Source of the DNA: a bacterium
Lineage (GTDB): Bacteria; Patescibacteriota; Minisyncoccia; Phycocordibacterales; UBA2100
Length of the DNA: 64,000 nucleotides
Direction: 5' to 3'
Assembly: GCA_038128225.1 (NCBI GenBank)
Contig: JAYPJF010000001.1
Span: 2,155-66,154 of the forward strand
The notes beneath the pieces were generated by a model. It did not search any database, was not told the DNA's origin, and saw only the letters and a list, made by a program, of their open reading frames with translations. Positions 1,232 to 60,933 of this stretch are shown in pieces. The position numbers and the translations under genes were made by a program. Each line of letters starts with the position of its first letter. Position 1 is the stretch's first letter.

Positions 1232-3448
1232 ATGACTCTTATGCCAAAAGACGGCTCAAAACCTAGCAATATTCCTGAGGTCTTTTTGAAGCCATACAAT
1301 GCTGTCGACGAAGAACTTTCGATTCTTGCCTTGTGGGAGAAAAGTGGGTACGCAAACCCGGATGTGTGCATTCAGAAAGGGATCTCCTCCTCAACCGCTG
1401 AACCGTTTTCAATCGTCCTTCCTCCCCCCAATGTTACCGGCACCCTTCACATCGGCCATGCCGCGATGCTTGCCGTAGAAGATATCCTCGTGCGTCATGC
1501 GCGCATGCAAGGAAAACGCACCTTGTGGCTTCCTGGAACCGACCATGCGGCAATCGCAACCCAATCAAAAGTGGAAAAAGAAATGCAAAAAAAAGAAGGT
1601 CTATCGCGCCACGATCTTGGGCGTGAAAAGTTTTTGGAGCGCGTAGTCAAGTTTGCACAAGAAAGCCACGATACGATCGTCGGGCAAGTTACCCGTATTG
1701 GCTCTTCGGTAGACTGGAGTCGCGAAGCATTCACCCTTGATGAGGCGCGAACAAAGGCGGTGCGGACTGCATTTAAAAACATGTACGATGCCGGTCTTAT
1801 TTACCGCGGTCATCGCATCGTAAACTGGGATCCGAAAGGGCAAACCACTATTTCAGACGACGAGATTGTGTACGAAGAACGAAAAGAGAAGTTTTATTAT
1901 CTCAAGTATGGGCCGTTTGTGATTGGAACGGCACGCCCGGAAACTAAGTTCGGTGATAAATACGTGGTCGTGCACCCTGATGATGCTCGATACGCTGACT
2001 ACGCGCACGGACAAGAGATTACGCTTGAGTGGATCAATGGGCCAATTACAGCGACGGTGCTTAAAGACGCTGCCGCAAACCCCGAGTTTGGCACTGGAGC
2101 GATGACCATCACTCCGTGGCACGATGCCACCGACTTTGATATCGCCGAGCGGCACGACCTGAAATACGAACAAGTAATCGATTGGTACGGAAAATTGCTC
2201 CCGATCGCAGGTGAATTCGCGAACATGAAAATTGCCGAGGCGCGAGAAAAAATAATCGAAAAGCTACAGGCAAAAGGTTTGGTGGATCGAGTTGAAGAGT
2301 ACGTGCACAACGTTGCGACTGCAGAACGTACGGGAGCGGTAGTCGAACCTCAAATCAAACTCCAGTGGTTTATTGACGTCGACAAACCGTTCGCGCTCCC
2401 CCACTCGCAGATTAAAGGCATGCTGCCAAACACTGAAACGACACTCAAACGCCTCATGAAAACCGTAGTTGAGACAGGTCAGGTAACCATAGTTCCTGAC
2501 CGTTTTGCAAAAACATATTACAATTGGATCGATAACCTGCGTGATTGGTGTATTAGCCGTCAGATTTGGTATGGACATCGCATTCCCGTGTGGTATCGAG
2601 AAAACGAAGTGTACTGTGGTATTGAAGCACCCGAGGGCGCGGGGTGGGAACAAGATACGGATACATTGGACACGTGGTTTTCCTCTGGGTTATGGACTTT
2701 TTCAACACTCGGCTGGCCAGACCAGACGCAAGATTTAGAAACCTACCACCCAACGACAGTGCTCGAAACCGGGTACGACATCCTTTTCTTTTGGGTTGCG
2801 CGTATGGTACTAATGACCGGTTTTACTATGGGCGCGGTCCCCTTCAAATACGTGTACCTGCATGGACTCGTACGCGATGCGCAAGGGCGCAAAATGAGTA
2901 AATCCCTCGGAAACACGATTGACCCTCTGGAAATGATTGAAAAGTACGGCGCTGACGCGACACGTATGTCGCTCATTGTGGGAGCGCAGCCAGGAAATGA
3001 CATCAAACTCTCTGAAGATCGGATTCGGGGGTACAAGCATTTTGCAAACAAACTATGGAACATTGCCCGCTTTGTGCTTGAGAACACCGAATCATACGAT
3101 CCACAAGCACCGTACACTGCGCATGATGCGAAAATCGCGGCAGAAGCCCAGGAAGTTGTGCGTACTGCACACACGCATATCACCACATTCAGGCTCGACC
3201 TTGCAGCAGACGCTGCATACCACTTTGTGTGGGATCGATTTGCTTCAGAGGTACTCGAGGAGTCAAAAACAATATTCCGAAGTGAAGATATGGAAGCAAA
3301 GCGTTCGCGCGCCCGCCTTTTGTACGAGACTCTTACTCTTATGCTGCGCGTCTTACACCCTTTTGTACCATTTGTGACAGAAGCAATTTGGCAACGGTTG
3401 CCGCGAAAAGAATCCGATGTGTTGATGGTTGCGAAATGGCCACAATAA
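1232..3448 (+). CDS. valS: valyl-tRNA synthetase (short form lacking C-terminal coiled coil)
   Basis: Class I aaRS HIGH motif (PPPNVTGTLHIGHA) and KMSKS (KMSKSLGN); editing domain present. Confidence 0.9.
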   Translation: MTLMPKDGSKPSNIPEVFLKPYNAVDEELSILALWEKSGYANPDVCIQKGISSSTAEPFSIVLPPPNVTGTLHIGHAAMLAVEDILVRHARMQGKRTLWLPGTDHAAIATQSKVEKEMQKKEGLSRHDLGREKFLERVVKFAQESHDTIVGQVTRIGSSVDWSREAFTLDEARTKAVRTAFKNMYDAGLIYRGHRIVNWDPKGQTTISDDEIVYEERKEKFYYLKYGPFVIGTARPETKFGDKYVVVHPDDARYADYAHGQEITLEWINGPITATVLKDAAANPEFGTGAMTITPWHDATDFDIAERHDLKYEQVIDWYGKLLPIAGEFANMKIAEAREKIIEKLQAKGLVDRVEEYVHNVATAERTGAVVEPQIKLQWFIDVDKPFALPHSQIKGMLPNTETTLKRLMKTVVETGQVTIVPDRFAKTYYNWIDNLRDWCISRQIWYGHRIPVWYRENEVYCGIEAPEGAGWEQDTDTLDTWFSSGLWTFSTLGWPDQTQDLETYHPTTVLETGYDILFFWVARMVLMTGFTMGAVPFKYVYLHGLVRDAQGRKMSKSLGNTIDPLEMIEKYGADATRMSLIVGAQPGNDIKLSEDRIRGYKHFANKLWNIARFVLENTESYDPQAPYTAHDAKIAAEAQEVVRTAHTHITTFRLDLAADAAYHFVWDRFASEVLEESKTIFRSEDMEAKRSRARLLYETLTLMLRVLHPFVPFVTEAIWQRLPRKESDVLMVAKWPQ

Positions 3449-4654: not shown

Positions 4655-4775
4655 TTTTAAAATTGCATTCGCTCAACAAACTGTGACTCGTCCCACATCA
4701 GTCTCTCGGTAAATTTCGAGGTGCCACTACTTGTGTAGATGAAGCCATGACACTGATTACTCACGTAGTATACGG

Positions 4776-4848
4776 GAATCGGGGTGAGGCTTGAGCTCAC
4801 CACCTTTAAGCTTCACAGAGAAGCTTTAGTTACTGAGATGCGTTACGC
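4776..4848 (-). pseudogene. degenerate tRNA-Phe-derived copy (pseudo-tRNA)
   Basis: Minus-strand sequence resembles the adjacent tRNA-Phe (D-arm ...CTCAGT..., T-arm GTGAG-CTCAAGC-CTCAC, 3-prime strand CCCGATTC). Acceptor stem cannot pair and T-loop has C54. Folding attempted by eye only. Confidence 0.4.
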
Positions 4849-4850
4849 AG

Positions 4851-4924
4851 TGCTCGGGGTGAGACTCGAACTCACGACCCTTCGCTCTTCAGGCGAATGC
4901 TCTAACCAACTGAGCTACCCGAGC
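4851..4924 (-). tRNA. tRNA-Phe (anticodon GAA)
   Basis: Cloverleaf folded by eye: acceptor GCTCGGG/CCCGAGC, D-arm AGCTCAGTTGGTTAGAGC, anticodon loop CTGAAGA, T-arm GTGAG-TTCGAGT-CTCAC, discriminator A; CCA not encoded. Confidence 0.85.
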
Positions 4925-5353: not shown

Positions 5354-5371
5354 CGTATCGAGACTCTAACA

Positions 5372-5399
5372 CAAAAGCCGCCCTCTCGGGCGGCTTTTG
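5372..5399. terminator. bidirectional rho-independent terminator between tRNA-Arg and glutaredoxin gene
   Basis: AAAA-GCCGCCC-TCTC-GGGCGGC-TTTT hairpin. Confidence 0.7.
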
Positions 5400-5411
5400 T
5401 GTGCGCACACA

Positions 5412-5645
5412 TTACAATCCCAGTTTTTGCTTCAATGCATCCTCATCAAAACCAACAATGATCTCATCTCCAATTACGATAACAGGCACCCCCATTTGAC
5501 CGCTCTTTTCGATCATTTCACTACGTTTCTCTAAGTCTGAAGCAACATCATGCTCAGTGTAAGAAACTTTATTTTCATTAAAAAACTCTTTTGCTGCATG
5601 ACAGAAATGACATGTTGGCGTGCTGTAGATCGTTACTTGAGGCAT
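5412..5645 (-). CDS. NrdH/glutaredoxin-like small redox protein
   Basis: CxxC active site (STPTCHFCHAAKEF) and glutaredoxin fold motifs (GVPVIVIGDEIIVGFD). Start moved to Met52 (MPQVTIY) because upstream ORF part runs into tRNA-Gly-related sequence. Confidence 0.75.
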   Translation of the reverse strand: MPQVTIYSTPTCHFCHAAKEFFNENKVSYTEHDVASDLEKRSEMIEKSGQMGVPVIVIGDEIIVGFDEDALKQKLGL

Positions 5646-5690
5646 ACGAAGATATATAAAATAATAATGCTTGCCAAGTATACACCATTT

Positions 5691-5709
5691 GTGCGGGATG
5701 CGGGAATCG
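5691..5709. repeat. 19-bp direct repeat of the 3-prime end of tRNA-Gly (copy 1; copy 2 = 5837..5855 inside/adjacent to the tRNA)
   Basis: gtgcgggatgcgggaatcg occurs identically at 5691 and 5837. Confidence 0.85.
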
Positions 5710-5837
5710 GTCACGAGTTTCGCTCTGCGAACCCTCGACCCCGCCTCAGCCCGGCTCGGGCTTCCGGCTTTCGATTCCCACCCTCCGTTACAAAACAACA
5801 GTCATCGTACGCTCACGCGTACTCTTCGTTTGTTTTG

Positions 5838-5908
5838 TGCGGGATGCGGGAATCGAACCCGCATCTGCTGCTTGGGAAGCAGCCATTCTACCACTAAACT
5901 AATCCCGC
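5838..5908 (-). tRNA. tRNA-Gly (anticodon CCC)
   Basis: Acceptor GCGGGAT/ATCCCGC, anticodon stem-loop GCTGC-TTCCCAA-GCAGC, T-arm GCGGG-TTCGATT-CCCGC, discriminator A. Confidence 0.85.
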
Positions 5909-13370: not shown

Positions 13371-13399
13371 AAGGCAGTCTAAAAGCAAAGGAGTGCCTC

Positions 13400-13858
13400 A
13401 TGAAAAAACTCGTTCTCTGCGCTTTCTTCGTGATCTTTTTTGTAAGCTCCGGAGTGGCTCTCGAGGGGCAAAAAACCGATTCGCGATGGGCATATGAGTA
13501 CATTCTCGCGCGTCCGACCATCGAGCAGGATGGATTGAAAGGAATAGAAGACAAACTCGAAGGGGCGCCGTTTGGATTTCGCGTATTCGCAAACACGTTC
13601 TATCCTCAATCTCTCATTTTCGTCGTGCCAATGATTCTTGCAATCCACAATGAAGACGGGAGCATACAACCTGTCCACTGCATTAGTAAAATTAGTGACG
13701 AAGGACTTGATGGGAGTGTGAATTGGGTACGCGTCGCGTGTTTTGGCGATATCACCAATGACGAACAGGCCGTACTTACTGAAGCGGTGCGTGAAGGAGC
13801 GGATCATGTGCTCATGCGCATGATCGCTGTTCTGAAGCGACACCACGTACCTCTGTAA
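13400..13858 (+). CDS. hypothetical secreted protein (signal peptide)
   Basis: Strong RBS AAAGGAG, N-terminal signal peptide MKKLVLCAFFVIFFVSSGVA, followed by terminator; preferred over the overlapping antisense ORF. Confidence 0.6.
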   Translation: MKKLVLCAFFVIFFVSSGVALEGQKTDSRWAYEYILARPTIEQDGLKGIEDKLEGAPFGFRVFANTFYPQSLIFVVPMILAIHNEDGSIQPVHCISKISDEGLDGSVNWVRVACFGDITNDEQAVLTEAVREGADHVLMRMIAVLKRHHVPL

Positions 13859-13862
13859 CACA

Positions 13863-13898
13863 TCAAAAGAGCGCGGCTCCCGCCGCGCTCTTTTGTTT
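13863..13898. terminator. bidirectional rho-independent terminator
   Basis: AAAAGAGCGCGGC-TCCC-GCCGCGCTCTTTTG between convergent genes. Confidence 0.8.
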
Positions 13899-13927
13899 TC
13901 AAAACACTCTTCCAATTGAAACTTTTC

Positions 13928-19560: not shown

Positions 19561-19582
19561 AAGCTTGGCGAACTCCTCGAGC

Positions 19583-20107
19583 TTAGTTGCTCGTGCCGGT
19601 CTCGGTCGTGGCCGGATCGATGGGAGCGGCCGGGCCCGGCTCGACCTTCGGAAGCTCGGTCGTGACCGGCGCGAGCGTTGTGGAAGCATCGGGTGCCGAC
19701 GCGATGTCGGTGCCGTTCGTCTTCGCATACGCGGCCTGGAGCTTCGCGGCCTCTTCGGGGCTCACGAAGAACGTGATCCCGCGATCGCAGGAGTTGTTCC
19801 CCACGTCCAGAAGCCGACTGCCGAGATAGCCCTCGTACTTGTACTTGACGTTCTCGCCGACCTGGCCGACGAGAACCACGGCGTCGTCGATCCTCATGAC
19901 GCACTTGTCGCCGGCGACGTTGTCGCGCCCCTCATTCCAGTTGTAGCCGGCGGCGTCGACGATCGTGACCTGCGTATCCGCCTCGATGAGTCCGTAGGTC
20001 GGCTCCGTGACAGGAACCGCCTCCCCAGCAAGGATCGAACCGCCGAAGAGGCCGACAGCGAGGAGAGACAGGGCGAGCACGAATCCGAATTTGGGTTTCT
20101 TGCGCAT
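19583..20107 (-). CDS. hypothetical secreted protein encoded with strongly GC3-biased (foreign-like) codons
   Basis: Signal peptide MRKKPKFGFVLALSLLAVGLFGG; two Cys; C-terminal Pro/Thr/Ala-rich tail. Coding GC is by-eye about 64% with third positions nearly all G/C, while flanks are AT-rich. Shadow ORFs in all frames. Confidence 0.7.
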   Translation of the reverse strand: MRKKPKFGFVLALSLLAVGLFGGSILAGEAVPVTEPTYGLIEADTQVTIVDAAGYNWNEGRDNVAGDKCVMRIDDAVVLVGQVGENVKYKYEGYLGSRLLDVGNNSCDRGITFFVSPEEAAKLQAAYAKTNGTDIASAPDASTTLAPVTTELPKVEPGPAAPIDPATTETGTSN

Positions 20108-20173
20108 AAATACTCCTTTTTGTGCGCTCGTTGAACCGGATCAGGGTTTCAATGTAGATCCGGACCGCTCAAG

Positions 20174-42628: not shown

Positions 42629-44089
42629 GTGTCTCGTATAATTCTATTTACTGCCATAGTAATTTTTGTGCTGTTTTTAGTTATTAGTACGTGGCTTACG
42701 CTGCCAAAGCACTACATTGTTACGCGTACTGAAACTGGGTTTTCTCCGAAAGAGCTGCACATCCAAAAAGGCGACTTGATCACATTCACATCAACGCGTG
42801 CTATTCCGTATTGGCCAGCATCAGACTACCACCCAAGTCACGGTCGCTACCCTGCATTTGACCCTGGGCACGAACTTGGCCCTGATGAAACATGGACTTT
42901 CGTTTTCGACAAAGCCGGAGTTTGGAGCATGCACGACCATCTTGATGCAACTGTTACGGGCACAATTTTTGTTCTCGGTGATGAAGGCGAAAGTATCGCA
43001 TCGTGTCTCGAAACCAACACCGACACTCTGCGAGAAGTGTGTTGGGAGGGCGAACTTAAAGTAGCGATTGAGCGCGGCGGTCTCGCCGAAGGTTTTAGAA
43101 AATTTTCAGCATGGTACGCGAACGACCCACAGTTTCAGAGAAATTGTCACGATATAGGACACGTCTTGGGAAAAGTTGCCTATGCGCAATTCAAAGAAAC
43201 TGGCATCAGTGTTGTCGAGCCAGAAACTACGTACTGTGGCTACGGTTTCTATCATGGTTTTATAGAAGCCGCGACTCAAAGTACGGGGGCTTTCGACTTG
43301 AAAGAAGCTGTTGACTATTGTTATGCGCTTGCGGAGAATCCCAAAATTACAAATAAAATCGTCGCACACAATATTTCTGGCGCATGCTTCCATGGTCTTG
43401 GTCATGCGGTATTTGATTCAGTGAACAGTTCTTTGTGGGGAGATGACCGCGCCATGGTGCACTCGTCGCTCCAAGCATGTGAGAATGCGATTGGTAAGGA
43501 ATGGGAGCGCGGCCGGTGTGCTTCTGGCGTTTTTAATTCGCTTGCCGGCGCATACAGTGACCGTGCGTACAAACTCGATTTCAATGATTCAGAACCTCTT
43601 CGTGCCTGCACCGCAGGATCACTCGATTACCACAGCGAGTGTTCGCAAGAAATAGGTATCGGTTACGTGCGCGATAGAAATAAAACCATCGAGGAGAGCC
43701 TCGACTTCTTTGCTCGTATCGGGATTGCCTCCTCGACACTCGACACTATCAACGCATACATGGGCGACGAAATTCGTCGCAATCGATCTCGAACTGATTT
43801 CAGCATACAAGCGTATGTTACTGTATGCGAGCATATTCGTGACTATGAACAGGCGCGGTCCTGCGTACAGGGACTCGTCGAGGGTTTCTCATTAAGTTCG
43901 CCTGCGGGTGAAGAAACAACACATACACTGGACTCGTGTGTACTGTATACAAATAGCGCCCTCCGTTCTTTTTGTTTTAATGAAGCGGGCACTGAGGTCG
44001 AAGCATACCGCGGACGTGCTGCGTTACCAGAGTGGTGCGCAACGCTCAGCGCAGCAGATAGAACTGCAGTTACCGTGTGCGCTCTGTAA
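42629..44089 (+). CDS. hypothetical membrane-anchored protein: cupredoxin-like (Cys-less) domain plus novel Cys/His-rich repeat domain
   Basis: N-terminal TM. Cupredoxin-like beta-sandwich signature ending WSMHDHLDATVTGTIFV without the Cu-ligand Cys. Then repeated C-x-H-[DG]-x-G-H-x-x-G-like units (NCHDIGHVLG, CGYGFYHGF, CFHGLGHAVF, CASGVFNSLAGAY) and more than 15 further Cys. Confidence 0.6.
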   Translation: MSRIILFTAIVIFVLFLVISTWLTLPKHYIVTRTETGFSPKELHIQKGDLITFTSTRAIPYWPASDYHPSHGRYPAFDPGHELGPDETWTFVFDKAGVWSMHDHLDATVTGTIFVLGDEGESIASCLETNTDTLREVCWEGELKVAIERGGLAEGFRKFSAWYANDPQFQRNCHDIGHVLGKVAYAQFKETGISVVEPETTYCGYGFYHGFIEAATQSTGAFDLKEAVDYCYALAENPKITNKIVAHNISGACFHGLGHAVFDSVNSSLWGDDRAMVHSSLQACENAIGKEWERGRCASGVFNSLAGAYSDRAYKLDFNDSEPLRACTAGSLDYHSECSQEIGIGYVRDRNKTIEESLDFFARIGIASSTLDTINAYMGDEIRRNRSRTDFSIQAYVTVCEHIRDYEQARSCVQGLVEGFSLSSPAGEETTHTLDSCVLYTNSALRSFCFNEAGTEVEAYRGRAALPEWCATLSAADRTAVTVCAL

Positions 44090-44544: not shown

Positions 44545-45285
44545 TTACTCTGCCCAGCATTTAATAGCCTGTATCGATTCGTCCTCAAGAAAATCTCCTG
44601 AACGCTGCTGCTCTGTTGCCCATGCGGTTACCAAAGCGTCTTTACTAAACGTACCGATTTTTTTATCACTCGCAATCCTCTCATATGCGCGTAGAGATAT
44701 CGCCCTAAGCCATCTCGAAAAAATTTCATGCGAGGGAAAGATGGCGAATAAGTTACACTCATACTTTTCCTTGAGAATTCGCGCGCAGTGTATCGCTTCA
44801 GCCCACGCGTTCCGTTCATGATGGATTAACTCTTGAACCGCCCGTGCGGACATGTTCTGTACCAAAGATTCGCCGAGGCTTTCCCACCATTCCATATCCT
44901 TATACACAATGTCGTGTTCTTTGCGTTTTTCTTGTGACATTTTCCTCCACCTTATTATGTGCCCAATTTCATGCAGGATAACAAAAATGTATCTCTTGTC
45001 TGCAGCTGCTTCCATTTTTATGCGCACCAGAGCTTGATTCACTTTTGCCGCCGTTGAACTACCAGAAACAAAGGTTATGTCCCCAAAAACTTGACTTAAA
45101 TCTATACACACCTGCTTTGAATCAAATAATGTAATCGATAGCGATTCTTCTTTAGTGGCTTCCGAATCTGTATTTTGACTTATGAGCAGCTTCCACTCCG
45201 GTGTAAGATTTTGCTCATAAATAACTGGGGACTTTTCAGCTAGATCACGCCTCGACACCTTCTCAAGCATGCGCTGATTATACAC
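44545..45285 (-). CDS. hypothetical HExxH-motif protein (putative zinc metallopeptidase-like)
   Basis: ILHEIGHII with downstream Glu; no other recognised domain. Confidence 0.5.
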   Translation of the reverse strand: MYNQRMLEKVSRRDLAEKSPVIYEQNLTPEWKLLISQNTDSEATKEESLSITLFDSKQVCIDLSQVFGDITFVSGSSTAAKVNQALVRIKMEAAADKRYIFVILHEIGHIIRWRKMSQEKRKEHDIVYKDMEWWESLGESLVQNMSARAVQELIHHERNAWAEAIHCARILKEKYECNLFAIFPSHEIFSRWLRAISLRAYERIASDKKIGTFSKDALVTAWATEQQRSGDFLEDESIQAIKCWAE

Positions 45286-47159: not shown

Positions 47160-47933
47160 TTAAGAACAATACAGGACCAACTCGTGCTTCTCCTTTGCCG
47201 AGAGCGACACATTCGTTTCCTTTCCCAAAAGAGTTGCGCCGTTAAGCGTTACATCACGAACATTTGACGGCAATCCAAATGTAAGTGTGACGGTAAGTAC
47301 TTTTATTGTAAGCGCGCTTCGCGATGTGCCATCTACATACACTGGCACCCCGGGAAGTTTGGCTTCCACTGAGCCACCGCTTACGAGCGCTTCCGATGGA
47401 AGTGACAGGCCCGGTAGTGAGACAGGAATTGAAGTTGAAGGATACATGGTAGGACATCCTTCATTACGAATAGTGACCTCCACTGATGTCTGCTGCAACG
47501 CAACAACACCGATCGCAACGATGGTAATGATACCCAGCGGACCTCTTGCGCCCTTGATAATGCGCCCCCAACGAGACGCGGTGTGTACCGGCTGCTCTCC
47601 CCCAGTATTCTGCAATTCCTCCTGCACGCGAGCAACTTCACTTTGAAGCTGTTTCCAACTTGTGATGAAAAGCAAAATATATTTCTTTCGCTTCTTCTCT
47701 TCCTCGGTATTCTCAGGCAAATGCTCTGCAGTAAGGTGGATAATCTCGCCACCCGAGAGCTTGTCCCACGCAGAAAGTGCCTCTTCGCATTTTTGTATCA
47801 TCTGATCAATGCGCGAATCAATACCTCGTATGAGGGTACATACTGATGCAAACTTCTCGCGTGTAGTCGTCGGCTCCACAAGGAGCGTGTGTGCTGCTTT
47901 GAGTCTACGGACTGAATCTTTGGCACTTAGCAT
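47160..47933 (-). CDS. hypothetical membrane protein
   Basis: One central TM helix (IITIVAIGVVAL), otherwise unrecognised. Confidence 0.45.
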   Translation of the reverse strand: MLSAKDSVRRLKAAHTLLVEPTTTREKFASVCTLIRGIDSRIDQMIQKCEEALSAWDKLSGGEIIHLTAEHLPENTEEEKKRKKYILLFITSWKQLQSEVARVQEELQNTGGEQPVHTASRWGRIIKGARGPLGIITIVAIGVVALQQTSVEVTIRNEGCPTMYPSTSIPVSLPGLSLPSEALVSGGSVEAKLPGVPVYVDGTSRSALTIKVLTVTLTFGLPSNVRDVTLNGATLLGKETNVSLSAKEKHELVLYCS

Positions 47934-53064: not shown

Positions 53065-53685
53065 TTATAATACCGCCCCATCAATACCCACTTGTCGTTT
53101 GTATTCCTCGATAACCTCAGGGTGTTGCCCTTCTTTGCATTCAGAAACAAACTTCGCAGCTGCAGCGCCATCAGGGAACGTCATGTACGCAAGCGCCCCT
53201 TCGCAAATAGTATTGATGTTCAATTTGGTACTCACATTTGGTGCCCCCGTACTTGTGCCGAGTATTCGCGTAACCGTGAATACTCCTTTCATGTCGTACT
53301 TTGCCCATTGATTAGAACTGAGCGCTTCTTTAATGACCACCGTACCCTCAGCGGTAATGTATTGGTCGTTCTCCAGCTGTGCGCGCTCTGTAGACGAAAG
53401 TTGAGCTGCGTCAACCGCGTAATATTCTCCGCCGTCGGTGCGTAGCCCAAAAGCACACTCTTCTGTTTGAGGACCGCTCTGATCTTTATGTGGCAAACAG
53501 GTAAATCTGCCCGCGAGCGTCACCGGACGCGGGGTGGGATCAAGATCAGTCGCCCCTGGCGTACCCGTACGCGTATCAGAATTTGTCTGTTGGGTCTGGG
53601 CCCATACCATATACCCTCCCCCGGCGAGGACAATAAGTAAAGCTACAACAACAAGTGGCGTGATGCGTGCATCCATACACCGCAT
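53065..53685 (-). CDS. hypothetical secreted protein
   Basis: N-terminal TM/signal (ITPLVVVALLIVLAGGGYMVWA); no family recognised. Confidence 0.45.
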   Translation of the reverse strand: MRCMDARITPLVVVALLIVLAGGGYMVWAQTQQTNSDTRTGTPGATDLDPTPRPVTLAGRFTCLPHKDQSGPQTEECAFGLRTDGGEYYAVDAAQLSSTERAQLENDQYITAEGTVVIKEALSSNQWAKYDMKGVFTVTRILGTSTGAPNVSTKLNINTICEGALAYMTFPDGAAAAKFVSECKEGQHPEVIEEYKRQVGIDGAVL

Positions 53686-57890: not shown

Positions 57891-58148
57891 TTACTCTATC
57901 ATTTCAACGCTCCTCGGAATGATTAAAATTGCGATTTCCTGTGCCAATTGCTCGGGAGATTTATTGTTAGCATCTATGACGAAATCTGCATGCTTCATAT
58001 AAAGATTTTCTCGTTCCGAATATAAGTCCTCAAAGCTTTTACTCTTTAAACCGACAATACCACGAGTGCTCGCTTCAATTCGTGTTTTTAGGGCTTTAGG
58101 ATCGACTGCAAGATACAGGACGATTGAAATATCCTTGAGGGTTTTCAT
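57891..58148 (-). pseudogene. aroK: shikimate kinase-like C-terminal fragment lacking the P-loop N-terminus
   Basis: IVLYLAVDPKALKTRIE...ADFVIDANNKSPEQLAQEIAILI resembles the C-terminal half of AroK-type kinases. The upstream part of the ORF runs into tRNA-Gln and no Walker A is present. Confidence 0.4.
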
Positions 58149-58220
58149 TGCCCAAACTGGCTGCCGGACTTGGATTCGAACCAAGATAAACAGATCCAGA
58201 GTCTGTTGTCCTACCATTAG
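58147..58220 (-). tRNA. tRNA-Gln (anticodon CTG), CCA encoded
   Basis: Acceptor TGCCGGA/TCCGGCA, anticodon stem-loop ACAGA-CTCTGGA-TCTGT, T-arm CTTGG-TTCGAAT-CCAAG, discriminator G plus CCA. Confidence 0.8.
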
Positions 58221-58278
58221 ACGATCCGGCAATGGCGTGATTTTATCAAAAACCCGATGTATTTGCTACACTCCGGCC

Positions 58279-58947
58279 ATGGCTCGCTATCGGAGATACA
58301 AACGAGGACACAATGGAAATGACGTATTCTTGTTTCTTGCAGCACTGGTGGTTATTGGCGTTCTTGCGTATGTTTTCATAAGCAAAGCAGAGTCGATACT
58401 AATTGCGAGCACCGCTATTTCTTTTTTTGTAATTGCAGGGTTTTATATCGGACACCCGATTGTGAAATTTCTGAGTAAGAAAAGTTATGAGCATATACGT
58501 AAAGTTCGCAAAGACTGGAGAGAAATCAAGGAGATTGAAAAAACGAGGAGATTCTATACCGTACACCAACTAGTACAACTCGACCCGATTGTGTTCGAAC
58601 GGCATATGGCTCAAGTGTATCGTGCACTTGGATATACTGTTGAAATTACTCCACCGCAAAAAGACAAAGGCATCGACCTGATCCTTCACAAACACGGAAT
58701 TACTTGTGCGGTGCAAGTAAAACGCTACACGCGAAATAATGTAGGAGCTCCGGAGATACAGGCGTTCTATGGTGCGTACGCCCGCCGGTATGACAAGGGG
58801 CTATTTGTTACAACTTCTGACTTTACACAGGAAGCACGCCTGTATGCGAAAGAAAATGAAGTCATGCTTACTAATGGTACAGATTTAGGAGAACTTGAAA
58901 AAGAGGCTTTTGATAACAAATCTTCAACTAGTCGCATCCTTCATTAG
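58279..58947 (+). CDS. membrane-anchored Mrr-like restriction endonuclease-domain protein
   Basis: Two N-terminal TM helices, then Mrr_cat-like core (FERHMAQVYRALGYTVEITPPQKDKGIDLILHKHGITCAVQVKRY...GLFVTTSDFTQEA); start at Met72 of ORF. Confidence 0.6.
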   Translation: MARYRRYKRGHNGNDVFLFLAALVVIGVLAYVFISKAESILIASTAISFFVIAGFYIGHPIVKFLSKKSYEHIRKVRKDWREIKEIEKTRRFYTVHQLVQLDPIVFERHMAQVYRALGYTVEITPPQKDKGIDLILHKHGITCAVQVKRYTRNNVGAPEIQAFYGAYARRYDKGLFVTTSDFTQEARLYAKENEVMLTNGTDLGELEKEAFDNKSSTSRILH

Positions 58948-59471: not shown

Positions 59472-60422
59472 CTATTCAGACTTCAAACATGTACGCCGAT
59501 CTCGTCCGAGCGAGAACACATGCTCCCGCACTGCCACAACCCCCTGGGTATCGAATGTTACCGAAACACCAAGGCCTGTGCGCACCGCATCGTCCCAGTA
59601 CTGATCAAAAATAAAATTACCGAGCGAATAGTAAATTCGCGCCCCGTGGTACTCTTCCATTTCCTGAATAACGTGTGGGTGCGAGCCGATCACGATCACC
59701 GCGCCTGCATCTACAAATGAGCGTGCGAGCTCCCTCACACGCTGAGGCGGTGGCACATATTCGTCTCCCCAATGGGCATACACGATAGGCACGCGCCCGG
59801 ATTCTTTTTCTACACGCACTTGTGCCACCGTGTGGTCAGTCTTGTCGCTCGTCCAGTCACTCCAGTTTATAAAAGAGAGCGGCGTGTCGTTAATCGTCAT
59901 CCGCGCAACTCGATCACTTTCTTGGGCGTCAGGATCACCAAAGTGGCGCACTCGAGCACTCTCGAGCCACTGCTTCGTCTGCACAAGACCATCTCTTCCG
60001 AAATTCATGATGTGATTGTTGCCAATCGAGACAAGCGAAACATTGTTTCGTTTGAGTAAGGCAGCGGTCGATGTCGGAAATGTGAAAGTGTAGTTTTCAG
60101 GCGAACCGACAACACTCCCAACGCTTTTTGATGCGTACGACGTAATAGGGCCTTCCAAATTCCCGACCACCAAATCTACCGTGCCGAAAAGATCACGGAT
60201 GCAGGAAAAAATATACTCTTCTCCTTTTTCTTCGATTGTTGTGCGGATACTTCGGTCAAACATCATGTCACCCACAAACAGTACCGCCGCTTCTTTTTTG
60301 GAGACCTGTGCAGGAGCGGCGAAAAAAATAAAATCATCAAGTATCACAGGCGGGAAAAGAGCAGACACGACAAGCACGAACGCAAAGAAAAAAACTAACG
60401 TTCCACTAGTGCGGTTATTCAT
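59472..60422 (-). CDS. CapA/PGA_cap family metallophosphatase (poly-gamma-glutamate capsule synthesis protein-like), secreted
   Basis: Signal/TM, VGDMMFDR and LVVGNLEGPITS motifs. Confidence 0.7.
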   Translation of the reverse strand: MNNRTSGTLVFFFAFVLVVSALFPPVILDDFIFFAAPAQVSKKEAAVLFVGDMMFDRSIRTTIEEKGEEYIFSCIRDLFGTVDLVVGNLEGPITSYASKSVGSVVGSPENYTFTFPTSTAALLKRNNVSLVSIGNNHIMNFGRDGLVQTKQWLESARVRHFGDPDAQESDRVARMTINDTPLSFINWSDWTSDKTDHTVAQVRVEKESGRVPIVYAHWGDEYVPPPQRVRELARSFVDAGAVIVIGSHPHVIQEMEEYHGARIYYSLGNFIFDQYWDDAVRTGLGVSVTFDTQGVVAVREHVFSLGRDRRTCLKSE

Positions 60423-60933
60423 CCTCTTTCAGTGCCTCTTTAATGCCGACGAGTCCTTGTTTGTTTTTAACCGCGAGAAAGAGCCGCCGAGCAGTATCAA
60501 GAATCACGGGCAACTCGAGGTAATCAATAAGTATCGCAACCCACGCAAGCCATGCCGGCAATACGGTTTCGTGCGTGTGTGCGCCGGTGAAAGTGTCCAC
60601 CACAAATTCATCGGTAATCCAAAACATGTGAAGCCACTGCGAGTGTAGAAGTGCGAGCATGACAACTGCGTGCCATTTCTCTCCCCTACGCCACGCGTCG
60701 ATATACACGAGAGATATGGTGAGAATCGCTGGAATCTCTGTGTAATCAATGAGAATAATGATGATTTGCCAAATTCCTTGGAGATCAAAAATTCCTTCGC
60801 CTAAAAGCCTTGTGGCAATTACATCGCCCCCGAGCCAGGTAAGATGTCCGAGTTGCAAAAGAAAAAGCCCGAGCGCAACCGAGACATTGAGCACATAGTT
60901 TCGTTCATACCATTTCCAAAACCCAGAAAGCAT
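60415..60933 (-). CDS. hypothetical polytopic membrane protein
   Basis: 4-5 predicted TM helices; no family recognised. Confidence 0.45.
   Translation of the reverse strand: MLSGFWKWYERNYVLNVSVALGLFLLQLGHLTWLGGDVIATRLLGEGIFDLQGIWQIIIILIDYTEIPAILTISLVYIDAWRRGEKWHAVVMLALLHSQWLHMFWITDEFVVDTFTGAHTHETVLPAWLAWVAILIDYLELPVILDTARRLFLAVKNKQGLVGIKEALKEDE

Follow-up and report, generated by a model that had tools for sequence, protein, structure and literature searches.

What leaves a second copy of the 3' end of a tRNA gene, and a stretch of hairpins between the two copies, directly behind an intact tRNA gene? The question is raised by the locus between tRNA-Gly(CCC) and a glutaredoxin gene in 64 kb of contig JAYPJF010000001.1 from a member of the Patescibacteriota (the window, by which we mean the whole stretch of DNA analysed; all coordinates are those of the window, and the minus strand is the sense strand of tRNA-Gly). 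The window carries an insertion of 146 bp, consisting of a 124-bp core and one copy of the tRNA tail, and the insert belongs to a previously undescribed, clade-specific family of small non-coding, hairpin-rich modules in Paceibacteria-like Patescibacteria. Insertion relative to the ancestral layout, a family with a common architecture, gain or loss of whole modules at tail repeats and the occurrence of module types behind different tRNAs were all demonstrated. We read the module as a miniature non-autonomous insertion element that targets the segment of tRNA genes from the T-loop to the 3' end, a reading with an enzyme and a mechanism that we infer and with about an even chance of being right.

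The 19-bp sequence GTGCGGGATGCGGGAATCG was found at 5691-5709 and at 5837-5855 and at no other site in the window, even with three mismatches allowed, and none of 100 dinucleotide shuffles contained two hits, by which a chance repeat was rejected. This 19-bp duplicate of the tRNA-Gly 3' end had been placed exactly by the initial annotation; its true extent is 22 bp (TTTGTGCGGGATGCGGGAATCG, 22 of 22 positions matched, at 5688-5709 and 5834-5855), so that the 124 bp between the 22-mers equal the 127 bp between the 19-mers. The 22-bp repeat consists of the last 18 nt of tRNA-Gly(CCC), from C56 in the middle of the T-loop through the discriminator base, and of 4 nt of trailer (CAAA). Since CAAA is the conserved start of the tRNA-Gly trailer across many lineages, this 4-nt extension is no evidence for a recent event. 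The insert is single-copy within the window and richer in G+C (0.59 vs 0.49 for the window). No credible open reading frame (ORF) was found in the 124 bp, and a coding insert was rejected, the only ORFs being spurious ones that overlap the glutaredoxin gene or the tRNA. From the tRNA outward, the locus reads as follows.

5838-5908, minus strand: intact tRNA-Gly(CCC) gene with no encoded CCA (ARAGORN; Rfam RF00005, 73 bits, full length).
5834-5855, minus strand: first direct-repeat copy (D1), which starts in the middle of the T-loop, runs to the discriminator and takes in CAAA (22/22 identity).
5791-5837, minus strand: domain 1 of the module, in which the trailer CAAAACAA is predicted from the fold to pair with UUGUUUUG below an apical hairpin, GUACGC-GUGA-GCGUAC (5807-5822).
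5770-5798, minus strand: anti-tail, an inverted and diverged copy of the tRNA tail and trailer (an inverted repeat), which pairs with the second repeat copy in the minimum-energy fold.
5743-5768, minus strand: internal hairpin B1, GCC..GCCCGA-GCC-(U)CGGGC..GGC, predicted by folding.
5709-5740, minus strand: internal hairpin B2, GGUCGAG..UUCGC-AGA-GCGAA..CUCGUGACC, predicted by folding.
5688-5709, minus strand: second direct-repeat copy (D2), the displaced tail copy, ~46 nt from the glutaredoxin ATG.

The 150-nt stretch that runs from the tRNA end to the second copy was predicted to fold unusually well, at -67.6 kcal/mol on the minus strand (z = -5.7) and -55.3 kcal/mol on the plus strand (z = -3.7), which bears out the earlier description of the 127 bp as hairpin-rich, and the two perfect hairpins named there, GTACGC-TCAC-GCGTAC (5807-5822) and AGCCCG-GCT-CGGGCT (5748-5762), are both present. 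Domain 1 resembles, in degenerate form, the A-tract/hairpin/T-tract terminators behind tRNAs of relatives; a search of 5688-5837 called no intrinsic terminator on the minus strand, the sole match lying on the plus strand at 5807-5822. The inverted tail copy at 5770-5798 had not been noticed in the initial annotation, and neither had the decayed module end behind tRNA-Phe nor the membership of a family, both described below. On the plus strand the anti-tail reads TTCGATTCCCACCCTCCGTTACAAAACAA (vs TTCGATTCCCGCATCCCGCACAAAACAA for the tRNA tail and trailer), and it pairs with the acceptor part at only four of seven positions. A tRNA pseudogene arising by tandem duplication was rejected because the upstream arm matches the tail in reverse complement, T-loop and trailer included: its T-loop part reads AATCGAA, not TTCGATT, and there is no decayed 5' half of a tRNA. 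Neither ARAGORN nor Infernal called an additional tRNA in the insert. An anti-tail recurs in every related module.

That the segment was inserted follows from the layout in relatives. In L012, L017, L018, L025 and L026, a short promoter region separates tRNA-Gly(CCC) from the start codon of the glutaredoxin gene, which lies 44 to ~105 nt on, and no tail duplicate was found behind tRNA-Gly in any of the five, which are thus the empty sites, lacking the insert and one repeat copy, that the initial annotation had envisaged. The second copy in the window ends ~46 nt before the glutaredoxin ATG, the position of the real tRNA end at the empty sites, and the window therefore holds 146 extra bp. Occupied and empty sites are interleaved when ordered by glutaredoxin identity to the window (occupied: L032 84%, L035 82%, L022 60%; empty: L025 70%, L012 and L017 66%, L026 61%), a patchy distribution.

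Contigs from other samples contained both junctions. Five Logan contigs (L001, L002, L003, L030 and L031, from at least five samples) end exactly at 5833 or begin exactly at 5720; their sources are strains 100%, 99.9% and 99.2% identical to the window and a different species that shares only the tRNA. The interior (5721-5832, 112 nt) was never joined in Logan contigs despite holding no repeat of 31 nt or more, and one Logan contig of another lineage (L034) does span two modules. Because CACAAAA is common to module starts in other lineages and the sequences differ after it, the break pattern may reflect alternative sequences after ...CACAAAA within populations. The same pattern leaves the interior of the window copy without independent confirmation, the one point in favour of a chance repeat or an assembly artefact; we regard such an origin as very improbable in view of the shuffles, the junctions in contigs of other samples and the like architecture in relatives that were assembled independently (JGI, ENA, NCBI and Logan).

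A direct repeat of a tRNA 3' end that starts in the T-loop is a known signature of T-loop-type integration, so the locus could also be a classical integrase footprint, left by a phage or island that entered at the tRNA-Gly 3' end and of which later deletion spared only the attachment (att) sites attL and attR and ~124 bp of arms. The empty sites in relatives and the raised G+C of the insert are consistent with it, and tandem remnants at tRNA genes and transfer-messenger RNA (tmRNA) genes are documented elsewhere (PMC5704250, PMC3146451). Pfam searches of 49 ORFs of the window, itself 64 kb of a genome with a contig of at least 376 kb, detected no integrase, recombinase, transposase, reverse transcriptase or HUH nuclease, and no such gene or any other lies inside or near the insert. 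No full-length element at the tRNA-Gly site was seen in ~25 related loci, and no related integrative and conjugative element (ICE) or integrative mobilizable element (IME) using the tail repeat as att was found in the window or in those loci. The 22-mer was absent from the 2.9 million viral contigs of IMG/VR, none of which bears a matching attP, and the module cores had no exact match there, so that no free or viral copy was found. A phage or plasmid parent was rejected on these searches, which gave nothing or 30 chance 15-mer hits without module context. Random decay would not stop at one common ~190-bp unit in every copy, nor would it spare the hairpins, whereas the independent copies described below have common, small unit boundaries and retained hairpins; the inverted tail copy would also be left unexplained. 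We therefore consider an integrase footprint quite unlikely.

Scanning metagenome contigs for the 22-mer recovered L022, a contig fully syntenic with the window (DivIC, tRNA-Gly, insert, glutaredoxin, tRNA-Arg, tRNA-Phe). Its insert is 150 nt long with a slightly decayed terminal tail copy (TCGATTTCCGCATCCGCA), and its inverted tail copy, GTGCGCGGAT and GCGGGAATCGAA on either side of a hairpin, pairs with that terminal copy. Altogether, related Patescibacteria (L022, L035, L032 and L079) bear zero to three tandem modules behind tRNA-Gly, tRNA-Arg or tRNA-Phe. In contigs L034-L039 (glutaredoxin 82% identical) tRNA-Gly is followed by a tandem pair of modules, 196 and 229 nt long, with perfect copies of the tail variant of that lineage (ATTCCGC, not ATCCCGC) and inverted copies of it. 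In L032 and L033 (glutaredoxin 84% identical) tRNA-Arg(CCT) is followed by three modules and tRNA-Phe by one, and every module has direct and inverted copies of the tail of the respective tRNA; a decayed module lies behind tRNA-Arg in L079. In L032, two consecutive tRNA-Arg modules of unlike types have an identical 37-nt right end (3061-3097 and 3282-3318, AAAAGCCCGCGATTCTGGGACAGCCCCTCCGAGGGCA), where the tail copy is broken by 9 nt (TGGGACAGC).

The modules measure ~145-230 bp, lie directly 3' of tRNA genes, singly or in tandem arrays of unlike modules, and follow a common plan. Just past the discriminator, the A-rich trailer and its complement form a 5' hairpin capped by a small hairpin; two or three hairpins then lie inside a long helix of anti-tail and terminal tail, and the last base of the module is the discriminator. 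The anti-tail of three modules is interrupted by a hairpin where acceptor and T-stem meet, so that a tRNA-like three-way fold results. The point at which the tail copy begins on its left side varies (middle of the T-loop for Gly, T-stem for Phe). Compared with shuffled sequence, each of the eight extracted modules is far more stably folded (z from -3.8 to -7.9). The module-bearing tRNAs (Gly-CCC, Arg-CCT, Phe-GAA) all belong to one ~2-kb cluster; tRNA-Ser and tRNA-Gln of the window and tRNA-Val of L022 are module-free. The gene order of the tRNA cluster is fluid in this clade (L034-L039, L074-L078): an inserted DUF1465 gene separates DivIC from tRNA-Gly in the L035 lineage (e.g., L035 1392-1832), the L074 lineage has DivIC followed directly by glutaredoxin with no tRNA-Gly, and in the L032 lineage tRNA-Gly is inverted relative to glutaredoxin and tRNA-Arg.

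Whole modules come and go. L036 has ~97% average nucleotide identity (ANI) to L035 and is without exactly the tRNA-proximal 196-bp module, the gap being bounded by a 23-nt repeat (CGATTCCCGCATTCCGCACAAAA); contigs L042 and L043 from other samples begin inside that repeat. The idea that the module shared by L035 and L036 is more conserved than its neighbours was dropped, as its divergence (2/315) stands beside 0/240 in the adjacent gene and does not differ significantly from that of the upstream flank. With the tail-derived arms removed and homology called by z, the interiors fell into types found behind different tRNAs: tRNA-Gly of L035 and tRNA-Arg of L032 are both followed by type X (z = 19), and type Y follows both tRNA-Arg and tRNA-Phe of L032 (z = 18). 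The type X copies have common ends, from CAAAAA... to ...CTTAGTGACTTGACCCCGATTCCC, and wholesale difference is confined to the eight bases of the anti-tail opposite the acceptor strand, CGAAATGC in the Gly copy and CCCTCGGA in the Arg copy; in the rest of the pair, seven of 46 predicted base pairs are changed on both sides and none is broken. A right end of the form GUGAC..CC is common to type X modules, and in the window the 3' end of B2, GUGACC, abuts the second tail copy. The window interior has weak similarity to a single other module (L035_Gly_2, z = 4.6), and most interiors are mutually unrelated.

A further trace of the family lies in the window itself, in the trailer of tRNA-Phe (4755-4850, minus strand), which forms three small hairpins (fold z = -3.3) and looks like a decayed module end.

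4773-4807, minus strand: decayed module remnant ~45-90 nt downstream of tRNA-Phe (4850-4924), recognised from repeats and fold.

The remnant holds a T-arm-like hairpin (GGUGAG-CUCAAGC-CUCACC) that is 83% identical over 29 nt to the T-arm of tRNA-Phe itself, followed by CCGATTCCCG, the signature of module right ends, which spans the point where right end and tail meet. In the window CCGATTCCCG occurs only there, ~90 nt behind tRNA-Phe, and at 5701-5710, and two occurrences were reached in none of 100 shuffles. Because it stands behind a tRNA whose own T-loop differs, ...CCGATTCCC belongs to the module and not to the target.

The module-free tRNAs of relatives suggest how such structures might begin. 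They have A-tract/GC-hairpin/T-tract terminators immediately 3', and several of these palindromes reach back into the tRNA with a complement of 4-14 nt of its 3' end (tRNA-Phe of L074, L076, L077 and L025, tRNA-Arg of L026), as in L074 tRNA-Phe (CCCAAGCAC, terminator, GTGCTTGGG) and L026 tRNA-Arg (TGAGGGCAC, terminator, GTGCCCTCA). Template switching between the arms of inverted repeats can create, extend and homogenise stems, and can mimic compensatory substitution (PMC8794818, PMC8604942), a caveat for the count of compensatory pairs given above. The modules could accordingly be by-products of palindrome dynamics with neither function nor mobility: a terminator hairpin grew by template switching into the tRNA tail, further switches and slippage made the second tail copy and the hairpins, and neighbouring tRNAs acquired modules by local ectopic recombination. 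The palindromes that already run from tail through terminator to anti-tail at module-free tRNAs, the long stems and apparent compensatory changes that template switching makes and the confinement of module-bearing tRNAs to one cluster of neighbours all fit this account. It is nevertheless unlikely in our judgement, as the second tail copy of the window is identical to the tRNA tail and not to the complement of the diverged anti-tail, interiors of ~100 nt without a tRNA counterpart are common to modules at different tRNAs and in different lineages, and the right end CCGATTCCCG stands behind a tRNA with a different T-loop.

The folds also raise the possibility of a functional trailer RNA, encoded in cis and co-transcribed with the tRNA, in which the helix of anti-tail and tail mimics an acceptor/T-stem minihelix ending at the discriminator. 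Such an RNA could be released or finished by RNase P, RNase Z and the CCA-adding enzyme, or could act as an insulator or terminator of tRNA transcription before the glutaredoxin promoter is reached, and its tail copies would be kept identical by selection or gene conversion, not mobility. Seven of the eight modules fold more strongly on the tRNA-sense strand, sense folds hold 31 G-U pairs vs 15 in antisense folds, and every module ends exactly at the discriminator base. The three modules with a split anti-tail take the form of acceptor stem, hairpin and extended T-arm (L022 with matched GCGGAU/AUCCGC arms), compensatory pairs are present, tail copies bear the acceptor variant of each lineage (ATCCCGC or ATTCCGC), and short anti-tails already follow the terminators of module-free tRNAs. 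Dispensability is indicated, on the other hand, by the many module-free relatives and by copy numbers that vary between close relatives; interiors are unrelated between most modules, the four matches in seven acceptor positions make the window anti-tail a poor minihelix mimic, and no canonical terminator was found on the tRNA strand. Rfam searches gave nothing but tRNAs in the window at E up to 10 and in L022, L032 and L035 at E up to 1, with no family (tRNA, tmRNA or other) on the insert or on any module. We hold a trailer RNA to be possible, though doubtful. The three explanations offered by the initial annotation thus fared differently. A structured RNA gained from the conserved structure and the favoured tRNA-sense strand and failed to match any Rfam covariance model; the scar of an excised or decayed integrase element was not borne out in the form proposed; and a miniature mobile insertion was best supported, by the empty sites, by like-bounded modules behind different tRNAs and by presence and absence at ~97% ANI.

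The reading as a miniature insertion element is favoured because the segment is an insertion relative to the ancestral layout, boundaries are shared at different tRNAs, unlike modules stand in tandem, the polymorphic module is the one nearest the tRNA, the distribution is patchy and the right end carried by the module is T-loop-like. Entry would occur by recombination within the T-loop/T-stem sequence TTCGATTCCC, which is carried at the right end of the module and, inverted, inside it, and is common to tRNA-Gly and tRNA-Arg. An enzyme would act in trans, new copies would enter beside the tRNA and push older tail copies outward, and the anti-tail arm would be re-matched to a new tRNA through template switching between the arms of the inverted repeat. 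Loss would proceed by recombination or slippage between direct tail repeats. An empty-site allele would read tRNA...GCACAAATGGTG, and an excised circle would join GTGACC to CGATT...CACAAAAC. Because the tRNA is intact and the downstream promoter untouched, the insertion is probably near-neutral, and the module is probably co-transcribed as a trailer of the tRNA.

Several observations weigh against an insertion element, starting with the failure to detect a mobility enzyme among the 49 ORFs or a free or viral copy of the module cores. All module-bearing tRNAs lie in the single ~2-kb cluster, which, together with the module-free tRNA-Ser, tRNA-Gln and tRNA-Val, means that exchange could be local ectopic recombination, not true transposition. 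The left boundary of the tail copy falls at no fixed nucleotide, unlike that of a single site-specific crossover, and a crossover in the T-loop between tRNAs would first yield a chimeric tRNA. The weak similarity of the window interior to one module means that this copy could be old and vertically inherited, and with two sequences per type the changes counted as compensatory could be template-switch events rather than the outcome of selection.

A more speculative extension, which we put forward tentatively, is that the modules are tRNA-templated elements whose hairpin rebuilds the 3'-end duplex of the host tRNA gene, either as a folded att site or as an RNA minihelix mimic. As a folded single-strand site, the hairpin would let a recombinase insert at any tRNA with a TTCGATTCCC T-loop, the arm being re-templated; as an RNA, the mimic would be released and finished by tRNA-processing enzymes, giving tRNA-punctuated small RNAs.

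The insert sits in a housekeeping neighbourhood: TsaD, a class I aminoacyl-tRNA synthetase, PrsW, Hsp20, tRNA-Phe, a 110-aa ORF, tRNA-Arg(CCT), a terminator, the 77-aa glutaredoxin/NrdH-like gene, the insert, tRNA-Gly, DivIC, LepA and MurJ. Relatives found through DivIC are Patescibacteria of the Paceibacteria/Nomurabacteria type, with an identity of at most ~35%, and many glutaredoxin homologues with 75-84% identity are labelled Kaiserbacteria or Pacebacteria. Between the second repeat copy and the ATG of the glutaredoxin gene lies the promoter-like site that the insertion left untouched.

5412-5645, minus strand: glutaredoxin gene (Pfam Glutaredoxin, 1e-20).
5649-5677, minus strand: promoter-like site of the glutaredoxin gene, TTGGCA-17-TATCTT.

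The -10-like element of this site ends ~4 nt ahead of the ATG and a Shine-Dalgarno sequence is not evident (5643-5677); judged from sequence, the glutaredoxin mRNA may be leaderless, seemingly like those of L017 and L018. A perfect 15-bp inverted repeat (ACACAAAAGCCGCCC / GGGCGGCTTTTGTGT, 5369-5402), a terminator of the bidirectional type, separates the glutaredoxin gene from tRNA-Arg. Elsewhere in the window, an ORF with an Mrr-type restriction endonuclease domain (1e-28; 58066-58947, plus strand) adjoins tRNA-Gln (58158-58231, minus strand); the long ORF call overlaps the tRNA, so its real start is probably downstream of tRNA-Gln. No tail duplicate was seen at tRNA-Gln. Seven ORFs of 172-486 aa had no Pfam match at E up to 1e-6 (42629-44089, 44545-45285, 47160-47933, 53065-53685, 13379-13915, 19565-20134 and 60415-60933).

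The genomes of Patescibacteria are tiny and streamlined, and few mobile elements are recognised and few non-coding RNAs known in them. If the findings hold, gene-less, highly structured units that accumulate behind tRNA genes and differ between close relatives would be a new component of the mobilome or of the RNA biology of these bacteria. Short-read assemblies will probably break at tRNA loci that carry modules, and pipelines that search for islands will probably mistake the modules for integrase att scars. Should the hairpin of tail and anti-tail be active, as a folded att site or a minihelix mimic, it would be a compact natural case of target-matched recognition.

The literature yielded no description of such tRNA-tail modules, only the general concepts of accretion of cis-mobilizable elements (CIMEs), REP doublets forming hairpins (REPINs, from repetitive extragenic palindromic sequences) and template switching. 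Like the modules, CIMEs in tandem accretion at tRNA and tmRNA genes are flanked by att-like direct repeats of tRNA 3' ends, carry no recombination genes, form tandem arrays of unlike units between the repeats and vary in presence between strains. They are, however, kilobase-sized remnants of ICEs or IMEs that need a related resident element, whereas the modules are gene-less units of 145-230 bp for which no parent was found, with an inverted tail copy in each and one unit type behind different tRNAs. The att scar of a tRNA-integrated island or prophage shares the 3'-tRNA repeat and the empty site with the window, but would come with an integrase and a matching attP, neither of which was found in the 49 ORFs or in IMG/VR.

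Closer in form are REPINs and bacterial interspersed mosaic elements (BIMEs), which are mobilised by RAYT transposases. In both cases a long hairpin is built from two inverted arms of ~20 nt around a spacer, successive arms of an array point in alternating directions with linkers of two kinds (tail-A-anti-tail-B-tail... in the modules), and the elements are non-coding and non-autonomous, with a structure kept by paired changes. REPINs, with a single REP sequence for each family, number tens to hundreds of dispersed copies and have no tie to tRNA genes; the arms of the modules, in contrast, are the tail of the local tRNA and change with it, the insert is single-copy in 64 kb, and the window holds no RAYT or HUH gene. 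Miniature inverted-repeat transposable elements (MITEs) are likewise small and non-coding, with an internal inverted repeat (here GGGAATCG...CGATTCCC), flanking direct repeats and insertion polymorphism. Their target-site duplication is 2-10 bp, whereas the flanking repeat of the modules is 18-37 nt of tRNA tail and the inverted repeat 14-19 bp. Unlike MITEs, the modules show no dispersed copies in the 64-kb window (the insert is unique, with a decayed end behind tRNA-Phe) and no matching transposase.

Folded single-strand att sites (integron attC and CTX-phi attP(+)) would offer an analogy for the recombination itself, being imperfect hairpins of ~60-140 nt whose stem reconstitutes a recombination site, arrayed beside a fixed site with one strand favoured. 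Only hairpin size and strand bias appear compatible, and unlike attC the modules have no integron integrase or attI context and target a tRNA gene. From tRNA-like minihelices and tRNA-punctuated RNAs (the tRNA-like domain of tmRNA, mascRNA-type processing) the modules differ in having no covariance-model match, a helix that continues through T-loop positions and, in the window, a degenerate acceptor part; they share with them a closing acceptor/T-stem helix that ends at the discriminator and, in some modules, a three-way tRNA-like fold. Set beside these systems, the feature is a variant of known small tRNA-associated or hairpin elements with an unusual design of tail and anti-tail.

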